Shown piece by piece: positions 1 to 33,058 of a DNA stretch of 33,477 nt (within the stretch, counting starts at the first letter, position 1; each line of letters begins with the position of its first letter). A program made the translations under genes and the position numbers. The DNA is from Deltaproteobacteria bacterium (GTDB taxonomy: Bacteria; Bdellovibrionota_C; UBA2361; JAAYZI01): contig JAAYZI010000302.1 in NCBI GenBank assembly GCA_012514925.1, positions 1 to 33,477 on the forward strand. The letters are read 5' to 3'. The notes under the pieces were generated by a model. The model was not told where the DNA came from. It searched no databases and saw nothing but the letters and a program-made list of their open reading frames with translations.

Positions 1-42
1 ATAAAACGTAAGGTCATCCAATCTGGTACGACCTAATATTGG

Positions 43-125
43 CCTTGTCGCATATGCATATCTCGCGCAAAAGGTTGGCAAATCAAACTAGTGTACTACG
101 TGCGAGATATGTATATGTGACAAGG
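43..125 (+). repeat. Long hairpin inside copy 1: about 26-bp stem and 31-nt loop.
   Basis: 43-68 CCTTGTCGCATATGCATATCTCGCGC pairs with 100-125. Three positions (50/118, 56/112, 67/101) are G:T on the plus strand. Confidence 0.85.
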
Positions 126-198
126 TTTAATAAAACCCCAGGTTAGCAAAGCCTTTCTGGTGATGGCTGGCGGTGGCTGGCAGTGACGCGGAGTCTTC

Positions 199-216
199 AC
201 TTTCTCCAGAGAAAGT
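199..216. repeat. Palindrome copy P1, ACTTTCTC-CA-GAGAAAGT.
   Basis: Perfect 8+2+8 palindrome read directly. The same core occurs at 10909, 29584, 31546 and 31814. Confidence 0.9.
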
Positions 217-261
217 AATATTCGTGCAAACGGTTACGTATATCCTTGTAAATTCAAGTGG

Positions 262-282
262 TTAAAAATGGTACTGATAAGA
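262..282 (+). repeat. 21-bp motif TTAAAAATGGTACTGATAAGA, with a perfect inverted partner at 33062..33082.
   Basis: Exact 21/21 reverse-complement match. It lies 4 nt 3' of the kinase stop codon (287-289, minus strand). Confidence 0.9.
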
Positions 283-286
283 TTAA

Positions 287-2266
287 TCAGTTCGCGCTAA
301 CGGTGCGGGCCTCTCGCTCCTCTCCGAAGCACCCCAAAAAGGCGCACAGATCTTCAATTTCCACCGGCTTACAGAAGACCCGCCGGGCACCTAAACGTTT
401 CAAATCTTCCCTTTCGGCTGGATCGTCTCGTCCAGAGAGCACCACAGCCACAGTCCGGCAGCCCTTAGCTCTTATAGCAGAGAGCAAGCGCCGCCCACCA
501 CCATCTGGCATGGACGCATCAGTGATCAGATAATCCACCTCCCCGCCACGCAGCACCTCTAACGCCGAACTAACATTATGCGCCTGCAACACCCGACAAC
601 CCACCGCGCTAAGAGCGCGCCCTAAAGTCGTGACACAATCAGGATCATCATCCACCACCAAGACACTTTGAGCGCGGCCCCTACCCCTAACTTTGCGCTC
701 CACTTCGACCTTGGCACGTTCCATTGGCGCCTGAGGCAAAGAAAGCACGAAATCCGAACCCTGGCCCGGCACCGAGAGAACCTGAATCTGGCCTGCATTC
801 AACTCCACCAAAATCTTAGTAAGAGCCAACCCTAATCCAATCCCTTCAATCTCAGGACCATGAAACCTGGTAAAAGGGGAGAAAAGCATGGATACCTGCT
901 CCGCCGTCATACCTACCCCGGAGTCCCTGACCCTCAAACACCACATACCCTTAGCGCCATGCTCAAGCTGCAACTCAACCGCGCCTTCAGATGTGTACTT
1001 AATGGCGTTGCTGATAATATTGCTGAGAACCCGTTTAATCTGACGCCGATCCGCAAAAACTTGGCAAGGCTGACTCGGAAGATCAACTCTCAGCTCAAGC
1101 CCCTTTAGACGCGCGCTTACGATAAAAGACTCCGCCACTGCCGCGGCGCAAGCCCGCAAATCCAGCGACTCTTTTTGCGCGCTCAGCTTTCCGGCACTAA
1201 ACTTAGAGTAATCTAAAATATCCTCCACAATCTCGGACATGTTCTCACAATTACTAATCGCCACGCTGATCAACTCTGGAGTATCTCCAGAAAAACCTTC
1301 CAACTTAAACAGATTAAGAATCGCCCGAATATTGTTAAGCGGAGAGCGAATATCATGCGACATATGCGCAATATAATCGTTCTTCTGGCGGTTGACATTC
1401 TCAACCTTAGCGATCTCGCCGGAGAGCTTGGATAGTTTTAATTGAGAAGGTAACTCGCGCTCCACCTTCCGAAGGACCTCCGCCGTAAGTTGATACTCAT
1501 CCACACGCGGAGGGTTGCCACTGCCATAACCCAGCCAAAGCAAGCCTTTTTGGCGCTCCCCCTCCTGCAACCAACTAAACTCGTGCAGCAGCGCATAGCG
1601 CAAGCCAAAAACGCCAAAATCGCCATCCTGAACCTGACACTCCAAATCGTGCACCCTAAGAAGCTCGCGTCGCCCTTGCTGCACGTAGGGCCAGAGATGC
1701 CTGCGCAGCTGCGCTTCAAAACGAGTGCCACTTGCGACAGCGCCACGGCTGTATATTTTGCTGATGCTCACGCCTCTCGGCCTGGACACATTCCCGTTAG
1801 AGCCTTCCTCCAATAGTAAAATCGCCCCGGCCTGACAGGAAAATTTCGCTAAAAAATATTCCAGAGTCATCTGAAAAACTAAAGCATCTTCCTCATCTTC
1901 CCCAGCTTCACATCCTTTTATAGTCCCGGCCTGCACAGCCTCATCAATTCCAGCCTCATCGCCAAGCTTTCTAAGAAAAGCCTCACTCTCCAAGCGGCCG
2001 GTTAAGCTGTGCAGGCGATACTGCAAAGCCTCCAGCTTAGACCCCAGCTTAACCCCCCAGGCCGTACGCAACGCCAAACTCGCTTGCCCAGGGGAAGCCC
2101 CAAGTAAGCGCTCTAAGCGCCGTGCTAAACTCCGTGCATCTCCCACCACCAAAAACACATAACAGAGCAGCGCTAGTGCGGCTGCACTCAGGCAGTACAG
2201 ATTACCAGTCGCACATGAAATTAAGAGCGCCACGCCGAACAAGAGCAACGACAAGACCGTGATCAT
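287..2266 (-). CDS. Hybrid sensor histidine kinase/response regulator (N-terminal TM, GAF-like region, HisKA, HATPase_c, C-terminal REC).
   Basis: H-box MSHDIRSPLNNI; N-box ISNAIKYT; G-boxes DSGVGM and GIGLGLAL; receiver VLVVDDDPD...ITDASMPDGGG. The ATGA start/stop overlap with the upstream gene at 2263-2266 implies coupling. Confidence 0.9.
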   Translation of the reverse strand: MITVLSLLLFGVALLISCATGNLYCLSAAALALLCYVFLVVGDARSLARRLERLLGASPGQASLALRTAWGVKLGSKLEALQYRLHSLTGRLESEAFLRKLGDEAGIDEAVQAGTIKGCEAGEDEEDALVFQMTLEYFLAKFSCQAGAILLLEEGSNGNVSRPRGVSISKIYSRGAVASGTRFEAQLRRHLWPYVQQGRRELLRVHDLECQVQDGDFGVFGLRYALLHEFSWLQEGERQKGLLWLGYGSGNPPRVDEYQLTAEVLRKVERELPSQLKLSKLSGEIAKVENVNRQKNDYIAHMSHDIRSPLNNIRAILNLFKLEGFSGDTPELISVAISNCENMSEIVEDILDYSKFSAGKLSAQKESLDLRACAAAVAESFIVSARLKGLELRVDLPSQPCQVFADRRQIKRVLSNIISNAIKYTSEGAVELQLEHGAKGMWCLRVRDSGVGMTAEQVSMLFSPFTRFHGPEIEGIGLGLALTKILVELNAGQIQVLSVPGQGSDFVLSLPQAPMERAKVEVERKVRGRGRAQSVLVVDDDPDCVTTLGRALSAVGCRVLQAHNVSSALEVLRGGEVDYLITDASMPDGGGRRLLSAIRAKGCRTVAVVLSGRDDPAEREDLKRLGARRVFCKPVEIEDLCAFLGCFGEEREARTVSAN

Positions 2267-10086: not shown

Positions 10087-10497
10087 CTACTTCTTCTTCG
10101 GCGTAGCCTTCCTAGTGGTCTTCTTAGCAGTCCTCTTGGTAGCCTTCTTGGCAACCTTCTTGACGGCTTTCTTAGCGACCTTCTTGACGACCCTCTTGGT
10201 GGCCTTTTTGGCAACCTTCTTGGTGGCCTTCTTGGCAACCTTCTTGGCGGTCGGAGCAGGAGTAGCGCCGCAGAGAGCGCAGCTTTTCACGGTTTTGCCG
10301 ACTTTTTTGGCAGTTCTCTTAGTGGCCTTCTTGACAGCTTTCTTAGCAACAGTCTTTGCTTTCTTGGCGGTCGGCTTGGCAACTTTCTTAGCAACTTTCT
10401 TAGCAACAGTCTTTGTCTTCTTAGCAACGGTCTTTTTCTTCTTAGCGGCCGGCTTAGCGGCCTTCTTAGCAACAGTCTTTCTCTTGACAGTAGCCAT
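10087..10497 (-). CDS. Histone-H1-like lysine/alanine-rich basic repeat protein (nucleoid-associated type).
   Basis: 136 aa dominated by AKK(V/A/T) repeats. AGGAG lies 7 nt before the ATG at 10497. A strong terminator follows. Long ORFs in two other frames are shadows of this low-complexity repeat. Confidence 0.8.
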   Translation of the reverse strand: MATVKRKTVAKKAAKPAAKKKKTVAKKTKTVAKKVAKKVAKPTAKKAKTVAKKAVKKATKRTAKKVGKTVKSCALCGATPAPTAKKVAKKATKKVAKKATKRVVKKVAKKAVKKVAKKATKRTAKKTTRKATPKKK

Positions 10498-10845
10498 CTT
10501 TTTTCTCCTAAAAAAGGCTGAGACAACATCAAACATGCTGTCACACAGCGAGTTATGTCAGGGTCTAATCCTAAAAAGTGCCCCGCGCTTAAGCGCATGG
10601 GGGTTCGTGAGACCCGACACAAACACCATACACATCTTCACGCCATCGCCATAGTCCTTTTTTTTCAATAGATACATTTTATTATTGCTAATCTAAGATT
10701 GCTCTGGTCAGAGACGGGTAAGCACAGTCCCCCAGAATCTGTGCGCGATGCGGTACCAATACCCAACATGAGCCATTATTAGCATGTAGAAGTAGAGAAA
10801 TTCGACACTATTTCCAACACTATTTACAAAGCTAAGCCCCATTTT

Positions 10846-10947
10846 GTAACCGTTCACGCGCGGAATTGATCATGCAATTTTTGTTTTCAGCTTGGGCGGT
10901 AAAATTTCACTTTCTCTGGAGAAAGTAATATTTATGTAAACGGTTAC
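10846..10947 (+). repeat. Long-form palindrome element (copy E-a, contains P2 at 10909..10926), bounded by GTAACCGTT / AACGGTTAC inverted termini.
   Basis: About 80 nt are shared with 29509..29607 (GTAACCGTTCA..GGAATTGAT.ATGCAATTTTTGTTTTC.GC..GGGCGGTAAAATTTCACTTTCTC..GAGAAAGTAATATT). Confidence 0.85.
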
Positions 10948-10969
10948 CCCGTTTTTACACTTAACCTGG

Positions 10970-11758
10970 ATGTCTCATGAAGCATCCAGGTTAAGAGAAC
11001 GCCCATTCCAAAGGAGGACCATGCATTCGAAACTGGAAACAAGACTAACTCTGATCCCCTACGGCTACACCCGCTGTTACACAGTCGAGCTGGAAGCCTC
11101 CGCCGAAAAGCTGCAAGCCTTGGCAGATGAAATCCTTAACAACCTGCTCCCTGCAAGCATATTTCGAGGCGAAACGCTGCTTAACTTTAGCGGTACACAA
11201 GCCCGGACCAATCTTCTGAAAGATAGCCCTTACTCTTTTCAGCACCGACCCGAAGAGCTTTTTTTTATGACCGGCAAGGTCATCTTGCCATCTGAAGACG
11301 AAGCCCCACCAGACCAAAGCCCCCCTCCGCCACAGCGCTTCCAGGTCAGCATCCGCTCCCAATTCAAAGAGTTTAAAGGGTCTAAAGAAATCGAGCACTC
11401 TACCCAAATAACAATTGATTGGGGCTTGCCACAGACCTTCCCACTACGGGAATTTGTGTCGCTCTTAAAACCCGATATCGAGTACTTGCGTTTTGGATTC
11501 GACTTATTTCGGGCAAGGTTTTTATCCACCCTATTAGGTTGCTACCCGGTTGTAAGCGACAGCCTGCTGATCGAGGCGTTGCCAGGCCGGGTTGCCATAC
11601 AAACTATTTCGGAGGGACTAAAGCGCCAGACGGACCTGCCCCTTCAAAAAGATGGTTGGTTTGAAAAGACCACAGAAGTTCTAAAACGATCCTTAGATTT
11701 CGATTTAAAGCACGATTACCTGCTTCACGTCCTACCGGCGAAGAACCGCCGTCTCTAA
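10970..11758 (+). CDS. Hypothetical protein; no recognisable domain.
   Basis: 262-aa ORF. An alternative start MHSKLETR at 11021 is preceded by AGGAGG. There is a proline-rich linker (PPDQSPPPPQ). I could recognise no family motif. Confidence 0.6.
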   Translation: MSHEASRLRERPFQRRTMHSKLETRLTLIPYGYTRCYTVELEASAEKLQALADEILNNLLPASIFRGETLLNFSGTQARTNLLKDSPYSFQHRPEELFFMTGKVILPSEDEAPPDQSPPPPQRFQVSIRSQFKEFKGSKEIEHSTQITIDWGLPQTFPLREFVSLLKPDIEYLRFGFDLFRARFLSTLLGCYPVVSDSLLIEALPGRVAIQTISEGLKRQTDLPLQKDGWFEKTTEVLKRSLDFDLKHDYLLHVLPAKNRRL

Positions 11759-11987
11759 AGGAGCACCCCTACTTTTTCTCTAAAGGAGCACCCCTACTTT
11801 TCCTAAAGGAGCACCCCTACTTTTGCCTAAAAAGGAGCACCCCTACTTTTTTCCTACTTTTTTCCCCTAGTTACTTCCCTAGAGGTGTCCCTAGAGGAGC
11901 ACCCCTACTTTTTCTCTACTTTTTTCCTCTAGTTATTTTTCCCTAGAGGTGCACCCCTACTTTTTCTCTACTTTTTTCCTCTAGTTA
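11756..11987. repeat. Tandem direct-repeat array: four 23-25-bp units, then about 2.5 units of 52 bp.
   Basis: GCACCCCTACTTTT starts at 11763, 11788, 11811, 11837, 11899 and 11951. The short unit is TAAAGGAGCACCCCTACTTTT. The long unit adds CTACTTTTTTCCTCTAGTTATT..CCCTAGAGG. Confidence 0.9.
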
Positions 11988-12677
11988 TTCCCAGGGGTCG
12001 TCGCCGGGGATGTGAAAGACCTTTTGTCTGCCTTTAGTGACTGGCTCTAACTCTACTGCTGCGCAAAGTTCGTCTAAGACGTGTTTGATACGGTGGCCGC
12101 TGGACTCCACCAACTCGGCTACTTCTTGCTGCTGCTTGGGGTCTTCTTCTCCGCTTTTCATAAGGTAGGCGGCACCAAGCACGGCGCCTAAGGGGTTGTT
12201 AATCTCGTGACGCAAAGTAGCCACCAGGGTTTTTACAGTTTCTGTGACAAGCGCCTGCATCTTAATCCGGGTTAACTCGCCTTGCAGCCGGTTTCGGTCA
12301 ATAATTCCGCTTACTAATGGCTTAAAAAGCCCTTCTTTGATCTGCACCTTATTTAAAAAATAAGCTGCTCCGGCCTGAATCGAGGCTCCTGGAATTTCCG
12401 GAGCAGTGTCCGAGCTGATCATTATCACGGCCAAACCCTCAAACCATCCCTCTCCCAACATCTCGATTCCGCGGCCATCCGGCAGATGCTCATCTAAGAT
12501 CACCAGGCAAAATTGATCCCGCGGAGCTGACTGCAAGTATGCACGCGCGCTTGAAAGATCATTAAAAACCACAGTTTCCAGGTCGGATAAGAAAGATTTA
12601 AGCCGCATAGTCAAGATTTTTACGAAATCTTGGTCATCATCAATAATCAAAACCTTATGGGGTGCTGATGTTGTCAT
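11985..12677 (-). CDS. Receiver (REC) plus HisKA/DHp-like phosphoacceptor domain protein with no catalytic ATPase domain.
   Basis: REC: VLIIDDDQDF...LVILDEHLPDGRG...YFLNK. H-box-like ATLRHEINNPLGAVLGAAYL. The protein ends about 60 aa later with no N/G boxes. Confidence 0.8.
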   Translation of the reverse strand: MTTSAPHKVLIIDDDQDFVKILTMRLKSFLSDLETVVFNDLSSARAYLQSAPRDQFCLVILDEHLPDGRGIEMLGEGWFEGLAVIMISSDTAPEIPGASIQAGAAYFLNKVQIKEGLFKPLVSGIIDRNRLQGELTRIKMQALVTETVKTLVATLRHEINNPLGAVLGAAYLMKSGEEDPKQQQEVAELVESSGHRIKHVLDELCAAVELEPVTKGRQKVFHIPGDDPWE

Positions 12678-29353: not shown

Positions 29354-29508
29354 TTATTATCTCCTTTCTTCTTGACGCTACCTATGTGATCGGGTTCTAA
29401 CTCACACACTTTAGGACAATACTGAGGATCATCCACCGGTACAATAGAGACTCAGGCCCAAGTGCGGACTCGTTCAGTATGATGCACCCTTGTGCCGTAA
29501 CTTTCCAG

Positions 29509-29620
29509 GTAACCGTTCATGTATGGAATTGATTACGCAATTGATTATGCAATTTTTGTTTTCTGCCAGGGCGGTAAAATTTCACTTTCTCCAGAGAAAG
29601 TAATATTGGAATACCGATAC
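29509..29620 (+). repeat. Long-form palindrome element (copy E-b, contains P3 at 29584..29601).
   Basis: Co-oriented homologue of 10846..10947, with a 12-nt internal duplication (ATTGATTACGCA/ATTGATTATGCA) and a degenerate right terminus. Confidence 0.85.
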
Positions 29621-29777
29621 CAGATGCTTTTCCGGGTTCTACCACGTGAGAAGTTAATTTAAAGAATGTAAAACGGCGGTTTACTCTGCCCGTTTCGTTC
29701 TTCGAACTCTTCCTGTATTGGTATGTCGTCAGAGGATGAAATGGGTAGCTCTTCTTAACAGTTTGTAATGTCATCCC

Positions 29778-30839
29778 ATGCCAACTAAAATTTATCATGA
29801 AGCGTATAATTACCAACTAAGCCCGGACCGCATCGCGCAGCGCCCGGTACACCCCTATGATACGGCTAAGCTGCTGACAGTTAATCGCCGCGAGGCAAAG
29901 ATTGAAGATTCTAACTTTACTTGTCTACCACGTCTTCTGCGCGCAGGGGACCTCTTGGTCTTTAATGACAGCCGCGTGATTCCCGCGCGTTTTTTAGGAA
30001 AGATGGCCGGGCGTGATGCCTCTCTGGAAGTACTACTGGTACACAGACAGAGCGGGGGCATTTGGCGGTGTTTGGGAAAGCCGCTTAAGAAGTTCAAGCC
30101 TGGAAGCCTACTCGTTTTTGAAGAAGGGCTGCGGGCCAAGGTGCTGGAGCGCGTATCGGAACAGGAGGTGCTGCTTGAGTTTTTCTGCGAGGACGAGGCC
30201 GTAGATCTAAACTCACTTATGTCTAGGGTGGGGCAAATGCCGATTCCCCCTTACATCCGCCGGGGCCGCGCTGATGAGAGTGACCGATTGGATTATCAGA
30301 CTATTTTTGCAAGCCGGGATGGGTCAATCGCCGCTCCCACGGCTTCGCTGCACTTTACTCCAGAACTGATCACGGGTCTTAAAGAAGCAAGATGTCAAAT
30401 CGCGTACGCCACTTTACATGTGGGCACAGCCAGTTTTTTGCCACTTTGGGACGAGGTTGGCGAGGGCGTCACGCGCCTAAAGGCTCCGGCGGCTGAGACG
30501 TATGGTTTTTGCAGTGAGCTGCTATCAAAGATGGTTGAGACCAAAGCCCGTGGCGGACGGGTCATTGCGGTAGGAACCACGATGGTGCGCGCGCTTGAGT
30601 CCATGGTGCGGCATAGGGCCTGTAGCGGCGCTTTTGTGGAAACTGACCTTTTCATCCTTCCTGGATTTGAGTTCAAAGTAGTCGATGCGCTTATCACGAA
30701 CTTTCATCAGCCGCGTACTACCCACCTTCTTTTGGTACAAGCTTTTATGGGCAGACTCCTCTTGGAGCGTAGCTATCAGCACGCACTTTCAAACGAGTAC
30801 CGCTTCTTAAGCTACGGTGACGGTATGTTTATTGAGTAG
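29778..30839 (+). CDS. queA: S-adenosylmethionine:tRNA ribosyltransferase-isomerase.
   Basis: YNYQLSPDRIAQRP...LLV, MPIPPYIRR, ASLHFT, GTTMVRALES, FHQPRTTHLLLV. These are canonical QueA motifs. Confidence 0.93.
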   Translation: MPTKIYHEAYNYQLSPDRIAQRPVHPYDTAKLLTVNRREAKIEDSNFTCLPRLLRAGDLLVFNDSRVIPARFLGKMAGRDASLEVLLVHRQSGGIWRCLGKPLKKFKPGSLLVFEEGLRAKVLERVSEQEVLLEFFCEDEAVDLNSLMSRVGQMPIPPYIRRGRADESDRLDYQTIFASRDGSIAAPTASLHFTPELITGLKEARCQIAYATLHVGTASFLPLWDEVGEGVTRLKAPAAETYGFCSELLSKMVETKARGGRVIAVGTTMVRALESMVRHRACSGAFVETDLFILPGFEFKVVDALITNFHQPRTTHLLLVQAFMGRLLLERSYQHALSNEYRFLSYGDGMFIE

Positions 30840-31121
30840 GACGAGGACCTTTCGCCTTATTGGGGGATAGAGAATGGTCGTTCACAGTGATGAAGCAAAC
30901 CTGGATCGAACGGCGATAACTATTAGTGAAAGCAAAGGTAAATTGCCACCTGGAGAGGTCAGGGAGGGTGACCGATAGCGGGTATACAAGGTGGCAGTTC
31001 CGGCTTTTCCAAAGCGCTTCGTCATCCCACGTTGGAGCGGGCAGAGTAGTTTGAACGCTGCAACGTGAGATGGGGCGCAGTAACATCCTAAACTCACGGG
31101 CGGATAGAAGCGACCCCACTC

Positions 31122-31391
31122 ATGTTTAGAGCGGGGTTTGCTGTGATAGAGATCGTAATTCAATTTTTAATTCCAGCCGCGGCGATTGTACTGGCCGGAT
31201 GCAATCACAGAAATAGAGTTCTCTGGCTGTTTGTAGGTACCTACTACGCTCTACTGGGGCTGGTTTTAAGCCTCGGAGATTCAAGCTCAATTTTATTCCT
31301 CAGTTGGCTTATGCTCTCTCCGCTTGTAAACAGTTTTATATGCATCGGAGTTGTCCAGGCTTTTGATTCAAACACATCGAATCTAGCCTGA
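31122..31391 (+). CDS. Possible small membrane protein (89 aa, 2-3 predicted TM helices).
   Basis: The ORF has hydrophobic segments, but no Shine-Dalgarno sequence and no recognisable family. It lies in an otherwise non-coding 1.1-kb gap. Confidence 0.3.
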   Translation: MFRAGFAVIEIVIQFLIPAAAIVLAGCNHRNRVLWLFVGTYYALLGLVLSLGDSSSILFLSWLMLSPLVNSFICIGVVQAFDSNTSNLA

Positions 31392-31456
31392 ATGTCTCAC
31401 TAACTTTTATTGCAAGTCGAAAACTCTGACCTAAAGAGCCCTCACCAAAAACGCCA

Positions 31457-31511
31457 GGCTTTGCTAACCTGGGCTCTAATTAAACCTTGTCGCATATACA
31501 TATCTCGCGCA
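31457..31511 (+). repeat. Half copy of the composite element (GGCTTTGCTAACCTGGG flank plus left hairpin arm only).
   Basis: It matches 31612..31666 closely but lacks the loop and right arm. It is followed directly by TATCCGCCCACGTG and palindrome P4. Confidence 0.8.
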
Positions 31512-31523
31512 TAACCCTCTAGC

Positions 31524-31764
31524 TATATCCGCCCACGTGAATTTTACTTTCTCTGGAGAAAGTGAATTTAACTCTGCGCCACTGCCAGCCACCGTCAGCC
31601 TTCTCCAAAAAGGCTTTGCTAACCTGGGCTTTTATTAAACCTTGTCACATATGCATATCTCGCGCATTGCATACTAGTTTCATTTACCAACCCTTTGCGC
31701 GAGATATGCATATGCGACAAGGCCAATATTAGGTCGTACCAGATTGGAGAACCTTACGTTTTAT
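31524..31764 (+). repeat. Composite repeat element, copy 2 (palindrome P4 at 31546..31563, spacer, hairpin 31640..31722, tail).
   Basis: Inverted homologue of 1..222. The hairpin has a 27-bp stem with a single A:C at 31647/31715 on the plus strand, which is G:U on the minus strand. Confidence 0.85.
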
Positions 31765-31794
31765 GGAGAAATCTAACACTGTCTGTGTGGTGGT

Positions 31795-31862
31795 ATCCGC
31801 CCACGTGAATTTTACTTTCTCTGGAGAAAGTGAAATTAATTCCCAGCGTGAACGGTTACCGG
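31795..31862 (+). repeat. Short-form palindrome unit with P5 (31808..31837), ending in GTGAACGGTTACC.
   Basis: AATTTTACTTTCTC-TG-GAGAAAGTGAAATT is 14+2+14 with one T:G. It is preceded by TATCCGCCCACGTG, as P4 is. It ends about 87 nt upstream of the tgt ATG. Confidence 0.85.
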
Positions 31863-31933
31863 ATACAGCAGAGCTTCAAAACTTGTACTAAAATAGATTT
31901 CCAGGTATTTAGAGTGTCCTGTTTTACGCATAG

Positions 31934-33058
<1,125 letters not shown>

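Follow-up and report, generated by a model that had tools for sequence, protein, structure and literature searches.

We analysed a 33,477-bp stretch of DNA from a Deltaproteobacteria bacterium (assembly GCA_012514925.1, contig JAAYZI010000302.1; hereafter the window), which is the entire contig, and identified in it members of a family of short interspersed repeats built from two modules, P and H. These units are multi-copy, discrete, non-coding, intergenic and lineage-specific, they occur in mosaic or tandem arrangements, and their core is better conserved than their linkers. They probably belong to the same kind of non-autonomous elements as repetitive extragenic palindromic (REP) sequences and bacterial interspersed mosaic elements (BIMEs), REP doublets forming hairpins (REPINs) and miniature inverted-repeat transposable elements (MITEs), with a palindrome or hairpins recognised by an enzyme encoded elsewhere and with further amplification and shuffling by recombination or slippage.

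A sequence-only reading of the window had described two diverged, inverted copies of a roughly 225-bp composite element bracketing 31 kb. Both copies are real. Positions 1-223 are the reverse complement of 31539-31764 with one 1-nt offset, and a repeat search of the window returned inverted arms at 1-194/31571-31764 (194 nt, 91 % complementary) and 196-223/31539-31566 (28 nt, 96 %). The five sub-features attributed to the element (tail, hairpin, box, GGCTGGC-rich spacer and palindrome) were all found in the order given. The composite consists of the modules P and H, and the two inverted copies are independent members of the family. Overlooked in that reading were a third, truncated copy comprising the box and left arm (31437-31522), and solo occurrences of the palindrome module (10846-10948 and 29508-29622). 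As the window is the whole contig, the left copy is cut by the assembly end and not by the choice of window, the left end falling inside the repeat and the right end (33477) inside an open reading frame (ORF), not in a repeat. The suggestion that homology continues leftward is borne out by the family alignment, which extends it by ~30 nt and then into another palindrome unit.

Module P and its palindrome

P, 50-103 nt long, is centred on the palindrome and bounded by inverted ends of 13-15 nt (GTAACCGTTCACG ... CGTGAACGGTTAC). Its long form of ~103 nt is found at 10846-10948 (+), a 103-nt solo unit with the ends GTAACCGTTCACG and GTAAACGGTTAC and the palindrome at 10906-10928, and at 29508-29622 (+), a solo unit in the divergent Pat-queA intergenic region with the palindrome at 29581-29603. 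These long units are asymmetric, one arm carrying a 40-nt insert. P also has a short form of 50-70 nt, in which the unit as a whole makes a long imperfect palindrome; it is complete at 31794-31866 (+; ~70-nt imperfect palindrome, ends GGTATCCGCCCACG and CGTGAACGGTTACC, core 31811-31833), and a second short unit at 31526-31574 (+; palindrome 31543-31565) is 96 % identical to 31794-31842. A partial P at 196-237 (+) contains the palindrome TTCACTTTCTCCAGAGAAAGTAA at 196-218 and an arm ending in the inverted-end motif AACGGTTAC. The ends of P are sharp, since in 29 aligned full copies similarity stops just outside GTAACCG...CGGTTAC and the flanks all differ. P thus has the structural features of a MITE, being small, non-coding and multi-copy with the ends GTAACCGTTCACG / CGTGAACGGTTAC.

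The palindrome TTCACTTTCTCYRGAGAAAGTRA occurs at five sites in the window (196, 10906, 29581, 31543 and 31811) against 0.00 expected. Its core, ACTTTCTC-YR-GAGAAAGT, spans 18-22 bp with a perfect 8+2+8 arrangement, and the arms are exact at all five window sites while the surrounding P sequence is just 67-88 % identical. We located 113 sites in 146 kb comprising the window and contigs of the metagenome series Ga0123334, Ga0123335 and Ga0123328, and 106 of these have perfect arms over all 16 positions, a degree of conservation that outside the window is biased by ascertainment, as are the copy counts, because contigs were retrieved by an exact palindrome match. The central dinucleotide is CA at 47 sites, TG at 34 and CG at 32, with no other combination, as would be expected if a CpG at the centre underwent C-to-T transitions.

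Between the partial P and the stop codon of the neighbouring histidine-kinase gene lies a 50-nt repeated segment, Q (238-287), which recurs after P in metagenome contigs L069 (949-1001) and L086 (416-466). Window positions 196-287 match the two contigs at 91 % and 89 % respectively, and Q, recurring in this way at another locus, is a further repeat module. Among the palindrome-bearing contigs, L139 also carries a fragment of a C5-cytosine DNA methyltransferase gene (1016-1681).

Module H and its conservation

H is ~190-220 nt long and comprises a spacer, the box, a hairpin with a 27-bp stem and a 29-nt loop, a tail holding a second small hairpin and a T-run, and ~30 nt more (ATGGRGAAATCTAACAYTGTCTGTGTGATGG). 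This distal segment is conserved in the family, and most H copies run from it straight into the next P unit; it is missing from copy A, which is cut there by the contig end. Copy B (31575-31793, +) is complete, with the spacer at 31575-31610, the box at 31611-31639, the hairpin arms at 31640-31666 and 31696-31722 (27 nt, 96 % complementary) around a loop at 31667-31695, the tail at 31723-31764 and the distal 30 nt at 31765-31793. Copy A (1-195, -; plus-strand coordinates) consists of the tail at 1-42, arms at 43-66 and 102-125 (24 nt, 92 %), the box at 137-153 and the GGCTGGC spacer at 155-195. Copy C (31437-31522, +) is truncated in the loop and contains a variant of the spacer, the box at 31457-31473 and the left arm at 31485-31511, with unique DNA to its left. 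The box sequence GGCTTTGCTAACCTGGG is exact in all three copies (137-153 on the minus strand, 31457-31473 and 31612-31628 on the plus strand), against 0.11 occurrences expected, and 0 of 100 shuffles reached three.

Copies A and B are 90.5 % identical over 190 aligned columns, and the seven fullest members of the family show pairwise identities of 83-94 % (mean ~90 %). With the two window copies differing by 9 %, their description as old copies and not an assembly duplication is reasonable. Per-column variability across the seven fullest copies was 16 % in the spacer, 3 % in the box, 0.5-2 % in the arms, 9 % in the loop, 3 % in the tail and 16 % in the distal 30 nt, so that H is a conserved core between two variable linkers. 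A caveat applies to copy A, which lies at a contig end, where repeat sequence in such assemblies may be partly consensus. This is suggested by an independent assembly of the right copy (L133), which departs from the window at seven positions, all of them within H, whereas its ~1.1 kb of unique flank shows no difference.

Single-strand folding of the elements is very stable, with z = -10 for P-H-P as DNA and z = -7 and -8 for the two strands of H as RNA. No compensatory change was found at the 35 hairpin pairs and covariation was no better than in shuffles; the H copies are few and, at 83-94 % identity, too similar for this test to be informative, and structure-level selection on the hairpins is neither shown nor excluded by it. 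We did not rely on a description of H as a classical MITE with terminal inverted repeats, as its ends can pair in folds yet are its most variable part.

Copies elsewhere in the organism

A palindrome scan of metagenome contigs returned at least 119 stretches, and 66 of those listed are 1-4.5-kb contigs of the one series Ga0123334/Ga0123335/Ga0123328. Two Ga0123334 contigs are near-identical to the window, L141 to positions 10642-12279 (99.9 %, spanning the solo P at 10846-10948) and L133 to 30505-31765 (99.4 %), which indicates that Ga0123334 carries the same strain. By BLAST and alignment of these contigs we identified at least 14 further distinct copies of H, including six that are virtually complete, several halves located where contigs end, and three variants without the inner part of the hairpin, together with at least 29 full copies of P, each with different flanks. 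The proposal that the elements form a dispersed intergenic repeat family is therefore upheld by more than a dozen H and dozens of P copies on other contigs of the same organism, flanked by unrelated housekeeping genes. Very often a contig ends no more than a few tens of bases from a palindrome, as the window does; short-read assemblies break at these repeats.

In a collection of species-representative genomes the 17-nt box had 42 single matches, all in unrelated taxa and with no surrounding similarity; we take these as chance matches, which implies that the organism and its close relatives are not in that collection. Plasmid and phage collections contained no relevant match to the elements, and neither did viral contigs, where the palindrome scan found two single sites, both on contigs already present in the metagenome scan. 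The elements correspond to no known RNA family, as the whole window had 0 matches to Rfam 15 at the gathering threshold, and positions 31380-31960 had 0 even at E ≤ 1.

Arrays and mosaic arrangement

The modules occur solo, as P-H composites and head-to-tail. The region upstream of tgt has the order H (truncated in the loop)-P-H-P, and the P-H-P-H arrangement, with a period of ~268 bp, is common to the window, with P at 31526 and 31794, and contigs L104 and L055. At the left end of the window the order on the sense strand of the gene is kinase gene-Q-P-H, where the contig stops. P arrays with a period of ~102-137 nt are present in L083, L096, L101 and L160. Tandem arrays of whole units, with one palindrome per unit, were found in L159 (1002-1250, 56-57 nt), L080 (2029-2355, 153-154 nt), L083 (17-342, 102 nt) and L096 (1-454, ~112-124 nt), and such arrays reach 4-5 whole units.

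Two other classes of array were considered and excluded. The 'spacers' of a putative clustered regularly interspaced short palindromic repeat (CRISPR) array would here be themselves repeated (56-57 nt in L159, 102 nt in L083), and no cas genes are present. An integron-cassette reading fails because the units are wholly repeated and there is no integrase gene.

Gene context and absence from relatives

The window encodes a hybrid histidine kinase, response regulators, a Tad pilus cluster, purE, coaBC, two Hsp70-like proteins with a DUF2760 protein, an ADP-forming acetyl-CoA synthetase/acetyltransferase (Pat), queA and tgt, and there is no transposase, integrase or phage gene among its 28+ ORFs, nor any tRNA or tmRNA that could serve as an attachment site. 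Genes beside the elements on other contigs are equally ordinary (NUDIX, TadE, YqeY, phosphoribosyltransferase, RtcB and tRNA synthetase, among others). Exact look-ups of three proteins of the window found no record of any of them. In a survey of ORFs of the window and the palindrome-bearing contigs no palindrome or element fell inside a credible ORF, and elements adjoin gene 3′ ends in 52 cases and 5′ ends in 38.

The nearest proteins in a large database are 75 % (Tgt) and 69 % (Pat) identical, while the best named homologues of the two are 62-66 % identical and come from several phyla, so that their names do not help to place the host taxonomically. The host is a deep-branching uncultured bacterium without a close sequenced relative. 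P, H and the palindrome are absent from the contigs of relatives L162, L163 and L164 (69-75 % amino-acid identity), even with three mismatches allowed, which points to a recent, lineage-specific acquisition or expansion of the family. L163 is syntenic with the window (Band_7-Pat | queA-tgt-...secDF) and its queA-tgt gap is 5 nt, as compared to 1.1 kb in the window, 430 nt of which is repeat. The gap in the window also holds ~550 nt of non-repeat DNA (30840-31391) with small unannotated ORFs, one of which encodes an 89-aa hydrophobic product (31122-31391); the repeat block lies beyond it at 31437-31866.

A number of other features of the window were recorded. Directly after the solo P, at 10963-10999, is a perfect 13-bp-stem hairpin (CTTAACCTGGATG...CATCCAGGTTAAG), with a likely AGGAGG-ATG start following ~25 nt later, at 11022. 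Two convergent genes are separated at 11752-11989 by a tandem/dispersed motif, (T)CTCTAAAGGAGCACCCCTACTTTT, which fills the gap in 25-nt and ~50-nt units, and a similar word, CCTTTAGAGGAGCCCC, adjoins a P unit in L051. An ORF of 12-nt-period repeats (10087-10536, -) encodes a Lys/Ala-rich (AKKAAKK-like) protein resembling histone-H1-like nucleoid proteins, with no Pfam or NCBIfam match. At 14094-19524 (-) the two large Hsp70/actin-fold proteins (929 and 660 aa) are followed by the DUF2760 protein, and the three genes look like a conserved module.

Origin and spread of the repeats

We propose that the modules would be non-autonomous, with the palindrome, as duplex or as extruded hairpin, being recognised in trans by an enzyme whose gene lies elsewhere in the genome and which would copy or move the units. 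Arrays and mosaics may then arise through unequal recombination or slippage between units, in addition to insertion beside existing units. Replicative selection of this type would account for the loop and linkers being less conserved than the palindrome, stems, box and tail, and conservation of the recognised parts has been described as a signature of replicative selection for REPINs (PMC3116915). A secondary role as a 3′-end hairpin for upstream transcripts is possible.

Several observations weigh against this proposal. Mobility is inferred here and not directly demonstrated. No transposase, REP-associated tyrosine transposase (RAYT) or integrase was found in the window or among ~100 ORFs on palindrome-bearing contigs (for 88 of these ORFs, among the 25 commonest families listed), the contigs, at 1-3 kb, being too short for a full insertion sequence. 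There is no consistent direct repeat flanking P or H that would represent a target-site duplication, and no presence/absence polymorphism at the two loci covered by an independent assembly, both of which have the same structure. The palindrome lacks the GTAG of REP sequences, its half-site profile being T/A-rich beside the arms, and H varies most at its ends (spacer and distal 30 nt), whereas in a classical MITE the terminal inverted repeats are conserved. The ascertainment through exact palindrome matches described above is to be added to these points.

Alternative explanations fare less well. The inverted pair could be taken to terminate a mobile island or composite transposon of 31 kb, in keeping with the inverted orientation and 91 % identity of the copies, a possibility that the sequence-only reading had itself disfavoured in the absence of transposase or integrase genes. 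The interior, however, holds genes for housekeeping and signalling, while genes for an integrase, a transposase or conjugation are absent, many copies lie elsewhere, and the third truncated copy and more palindrome units are found inside and beside the bracket. In addition queA (inside) and tgt (outside) are adjacent ancestral neighbours in L163, where the Pat | queA-tgt order runs on through the place of the right copy with no element there, which rules out an island boundary; this explanation is effectively refuted. It is very improbable that the left copy is an assembly artefact in which repeat read-through was chimerically joined to the contig end. Copy A does lie at the very end of the contig, many sister contigs likewise end in these repeats, and the repeat sequence differs between assemblies where the unique flanks do not. 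Nevertheless the layout of gene-Q-P-H downstream of a stop codon is also present at L143, L055, L113, L066 and L153, copy A has its own substitutions absent from copy B, and the junction of P and Q to the kinase gene is continuous sequence.

Two further explanations assign the elements a function in the host. We think it unlikely that H is a multi-copy small-RNA gene or a functional 3′ untranslated region or terminator, whose hairpins and U-run stabilise or terminate transcripts with P as mere neighbouring DNA. The very stable RNA folds predicted for both strands are consistent with it, as are stems more conserved than the loop, two recurrent stem mismatches that are A.C on the H (+) strand and become G.U wobbles on the opposite strand, and, in copy C only, a terminator-like hairpin with a T-run on the minus strand (31472-31454). 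H adjoins genes at their 3′ ends in 13 of 18 adjacencies and is co-oriented with the gene in 13 of 18, but this orientation bias is not significant (p = 0.096). There is moreover no compensatory change in the stems, no sigma-70-like promoter at either locus and no matching Rfam family, and the truncated and hairpin-deleted copies and head-to-tail arrays with P fit repeat DNA better. To about the same extent we doubt that the host maintains the palindrome and hairpins as architectural sites or as sites bound by a protein such as a nucleoid protein, gyrase or a global regulator, which would have spread by duplication only, without a dedicated mobilising enzyme, and been kept for organising the chromosome or for regulation. 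REP/BIME elements bind IHF, gyrase and Pol I. The invariance of the 16 arm positions at 106 of 113 sites, with only the central dinucleotide varying, the presence of sites in promoter-side and terminator-side intergenic regions alike, and the same palindrome as an intergenic repeat, in pairs 42 nt apart between ordinary genes of an unrelated high-GC lineage (see below), would all suit such sites. An operator, however, needs none of the ~100 nt of flanking sequence with discrete inverted ends that accompanies the palindrome, nor would a binding site account for whole units arrayed in tandem up to 4-5 times; that the nearest relatives lack the elements points to recent expansion and not an ancient regulon, and the invariance figure is inflated by the exact-palindrome retrieval of contigs. 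We therefore retain the reading of P and H as non-autonomous repeats recognised in trans as the probable one.

A shared palindrome and an HNH-nuclease gene

Other repeat families in this metagenome series are built around the same palindrome, with units of 56-57 nt (L159) and 153-154 nt (L080), and a further one has C-rich segments of 120-270 nt between palindromes (L144 and L150). Classification of the palindrome flanks on each side gave three dominant half-flank types with some mixing. Transposase or RAYT genes were sought beside palindromes in the low-GC organism and in the high-GC lineage described below, and among the families listed only ordinary genes were found apart from one encoding a protein of 535 aa with a C-terminal HNH nuclease domain. 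This gene is present in L044, L144 and L110, from three metagenomes, and HNH-domain genes were located at L044 542-2149, L144 733-1566, L110 9-1529 (-) and L165 141-1457. Palindromes are located upstream of the gene, in frame inside a variable linker (coding FTFSGESK) and downstream, and the palindrome is also perfect, at the matching intragenic position, in a homologue of 52 % identity found in other samples, whose flanks have none. Most members of the HNH family are on very short contigs, as multi-copy genes are. AT-rich iteron-like repeats (CATTTTAGTG x5) precede the HNH start codon. The association of the HNH gene with palindromes is suggestive of an enzyme-site relationship, no more.

An identical 20-bp palindrome, CACTTTCTCCGGAGAAAGTG, is present in an unrelated lineage of 66-69 % GC, where pairs or triplets of it, set 42 nt apart, occupy a dozen or more loci (contigs L043, L048, L054, L057, L062, L067, L070, L072, L073, L085, L095, L098, L103, L112, L115, L120, L121, L145, L146, L151 and L152). 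These lie within larger palindromes between ordinary genes, often convergent ones. The HNH family has no match at the high-GC loci, and the association of HNH gene and palindrome therefore does not generalise to them. That the palindrome ACTTTCTC-YR-GAGAAAGT is the site of an unrecognised non-RAYT trans-acting enzyme, for which the 535-aa HNH protein would be the candidate, and that this enzyme drives a superfamily comprising P, P-H and the 56-, 102-, 124- and 153-nt arrays, we regard as a long shot. If true, the palindrome pairs in the unrelated high-GC lineage would mean horizontal movement of the enzyme-site pair.

Implications

The repeats explain the poor assembly of this organism, whose contigs, the window included, stop within them. 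Because rearrangement could occur at any inverted pair, the repeats should be masked in binning and synteny work on this lineage. The family adds a REP/BIME-like system from a deep-branching uncultured bacterium, with a core unlike that of classical REPs in that it is a perfect palindrome, has a 2-nt centre and lacks GTAG, and is a useful test case for whether such repeat populations always depend on RAYT-type enzymes. Its practical importance is for assembly and its scientific weight is modest unless the palindrome-enzyme lead is true. Interest would rise considerably with confirmation that the palindrome is common to several repeat families and an unrelated lineage, and of the link to the HNH-nuclease gene.

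Comparison with known systems

Bacterial MITEs and modular repeats include the Correia/NEMIS elements of Neisseria, BOX of the pneumococcus and ERIC. They share with P and H a size of 100-250 bp, a non-coding nature, terminal inverted repeats (as in P), strong secondary structure and an intergenic location. MITE-type repeats are often co-transcribed with their neighbours, and BOX is modular (boxA-boxB(n)-boxC), as are the P-H mosaics. P and H differ from MITEs in that no target-site duplication and no parent insertion sequence with the same ends was found, and in that the ends of H are its least conserved part.

REPINs (PMC3116915) are resembled by the short P (31794-31866), whose pair of inverted arms is able to form a single long hairpin. 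Both combine conserved arms with a more variable interior, and tandem clusters that include flanking sequence have been described for REPINs. Compensatory changes are frequent in REPINs, in contrast to the H stems, where there are none among few copies of 83-94 % identity, and no cognate single-copy transposase was identified here. The long P units also depart from REPINs in their asymmetry, owing to the 40-nt insert in one arm.

REPs are 30-40-nt imperfect palindromes with a conserved 5′ GTAG needed by TnpA-REP, and BIMEs are pairs of REPs that face opposite ways with a linker between them and are sometimes in tandem (PMC3333891). In common with REP/BIME systems (PMC3333891, PMC2817692), the present family consists of high-copy extragenic short palindromic repeats between ordinary genes, arranged as mosaic clusters in which conserved motifs alternate with variable linkers, single or in tandem with a variable number of units. 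It differs in its core, a near-perfect 18-22-bp palindrome with a 2-nt centre, in arrays that are head-to-tail and not alternating REP/iREP, and in H, whose 27-bp stem and 29-nt loop have no counterpart; the available DNA contains no RAYT. The lack of GTAG, the head-to-tail arrays and the failure to find a RAYT mean that the family is not to be filed as REP/BIME, though as far as can be seen it is REP/BIME-like in behaviour. It is a new family within a known kind, that of bacterial short interspersed mosaic repeats.

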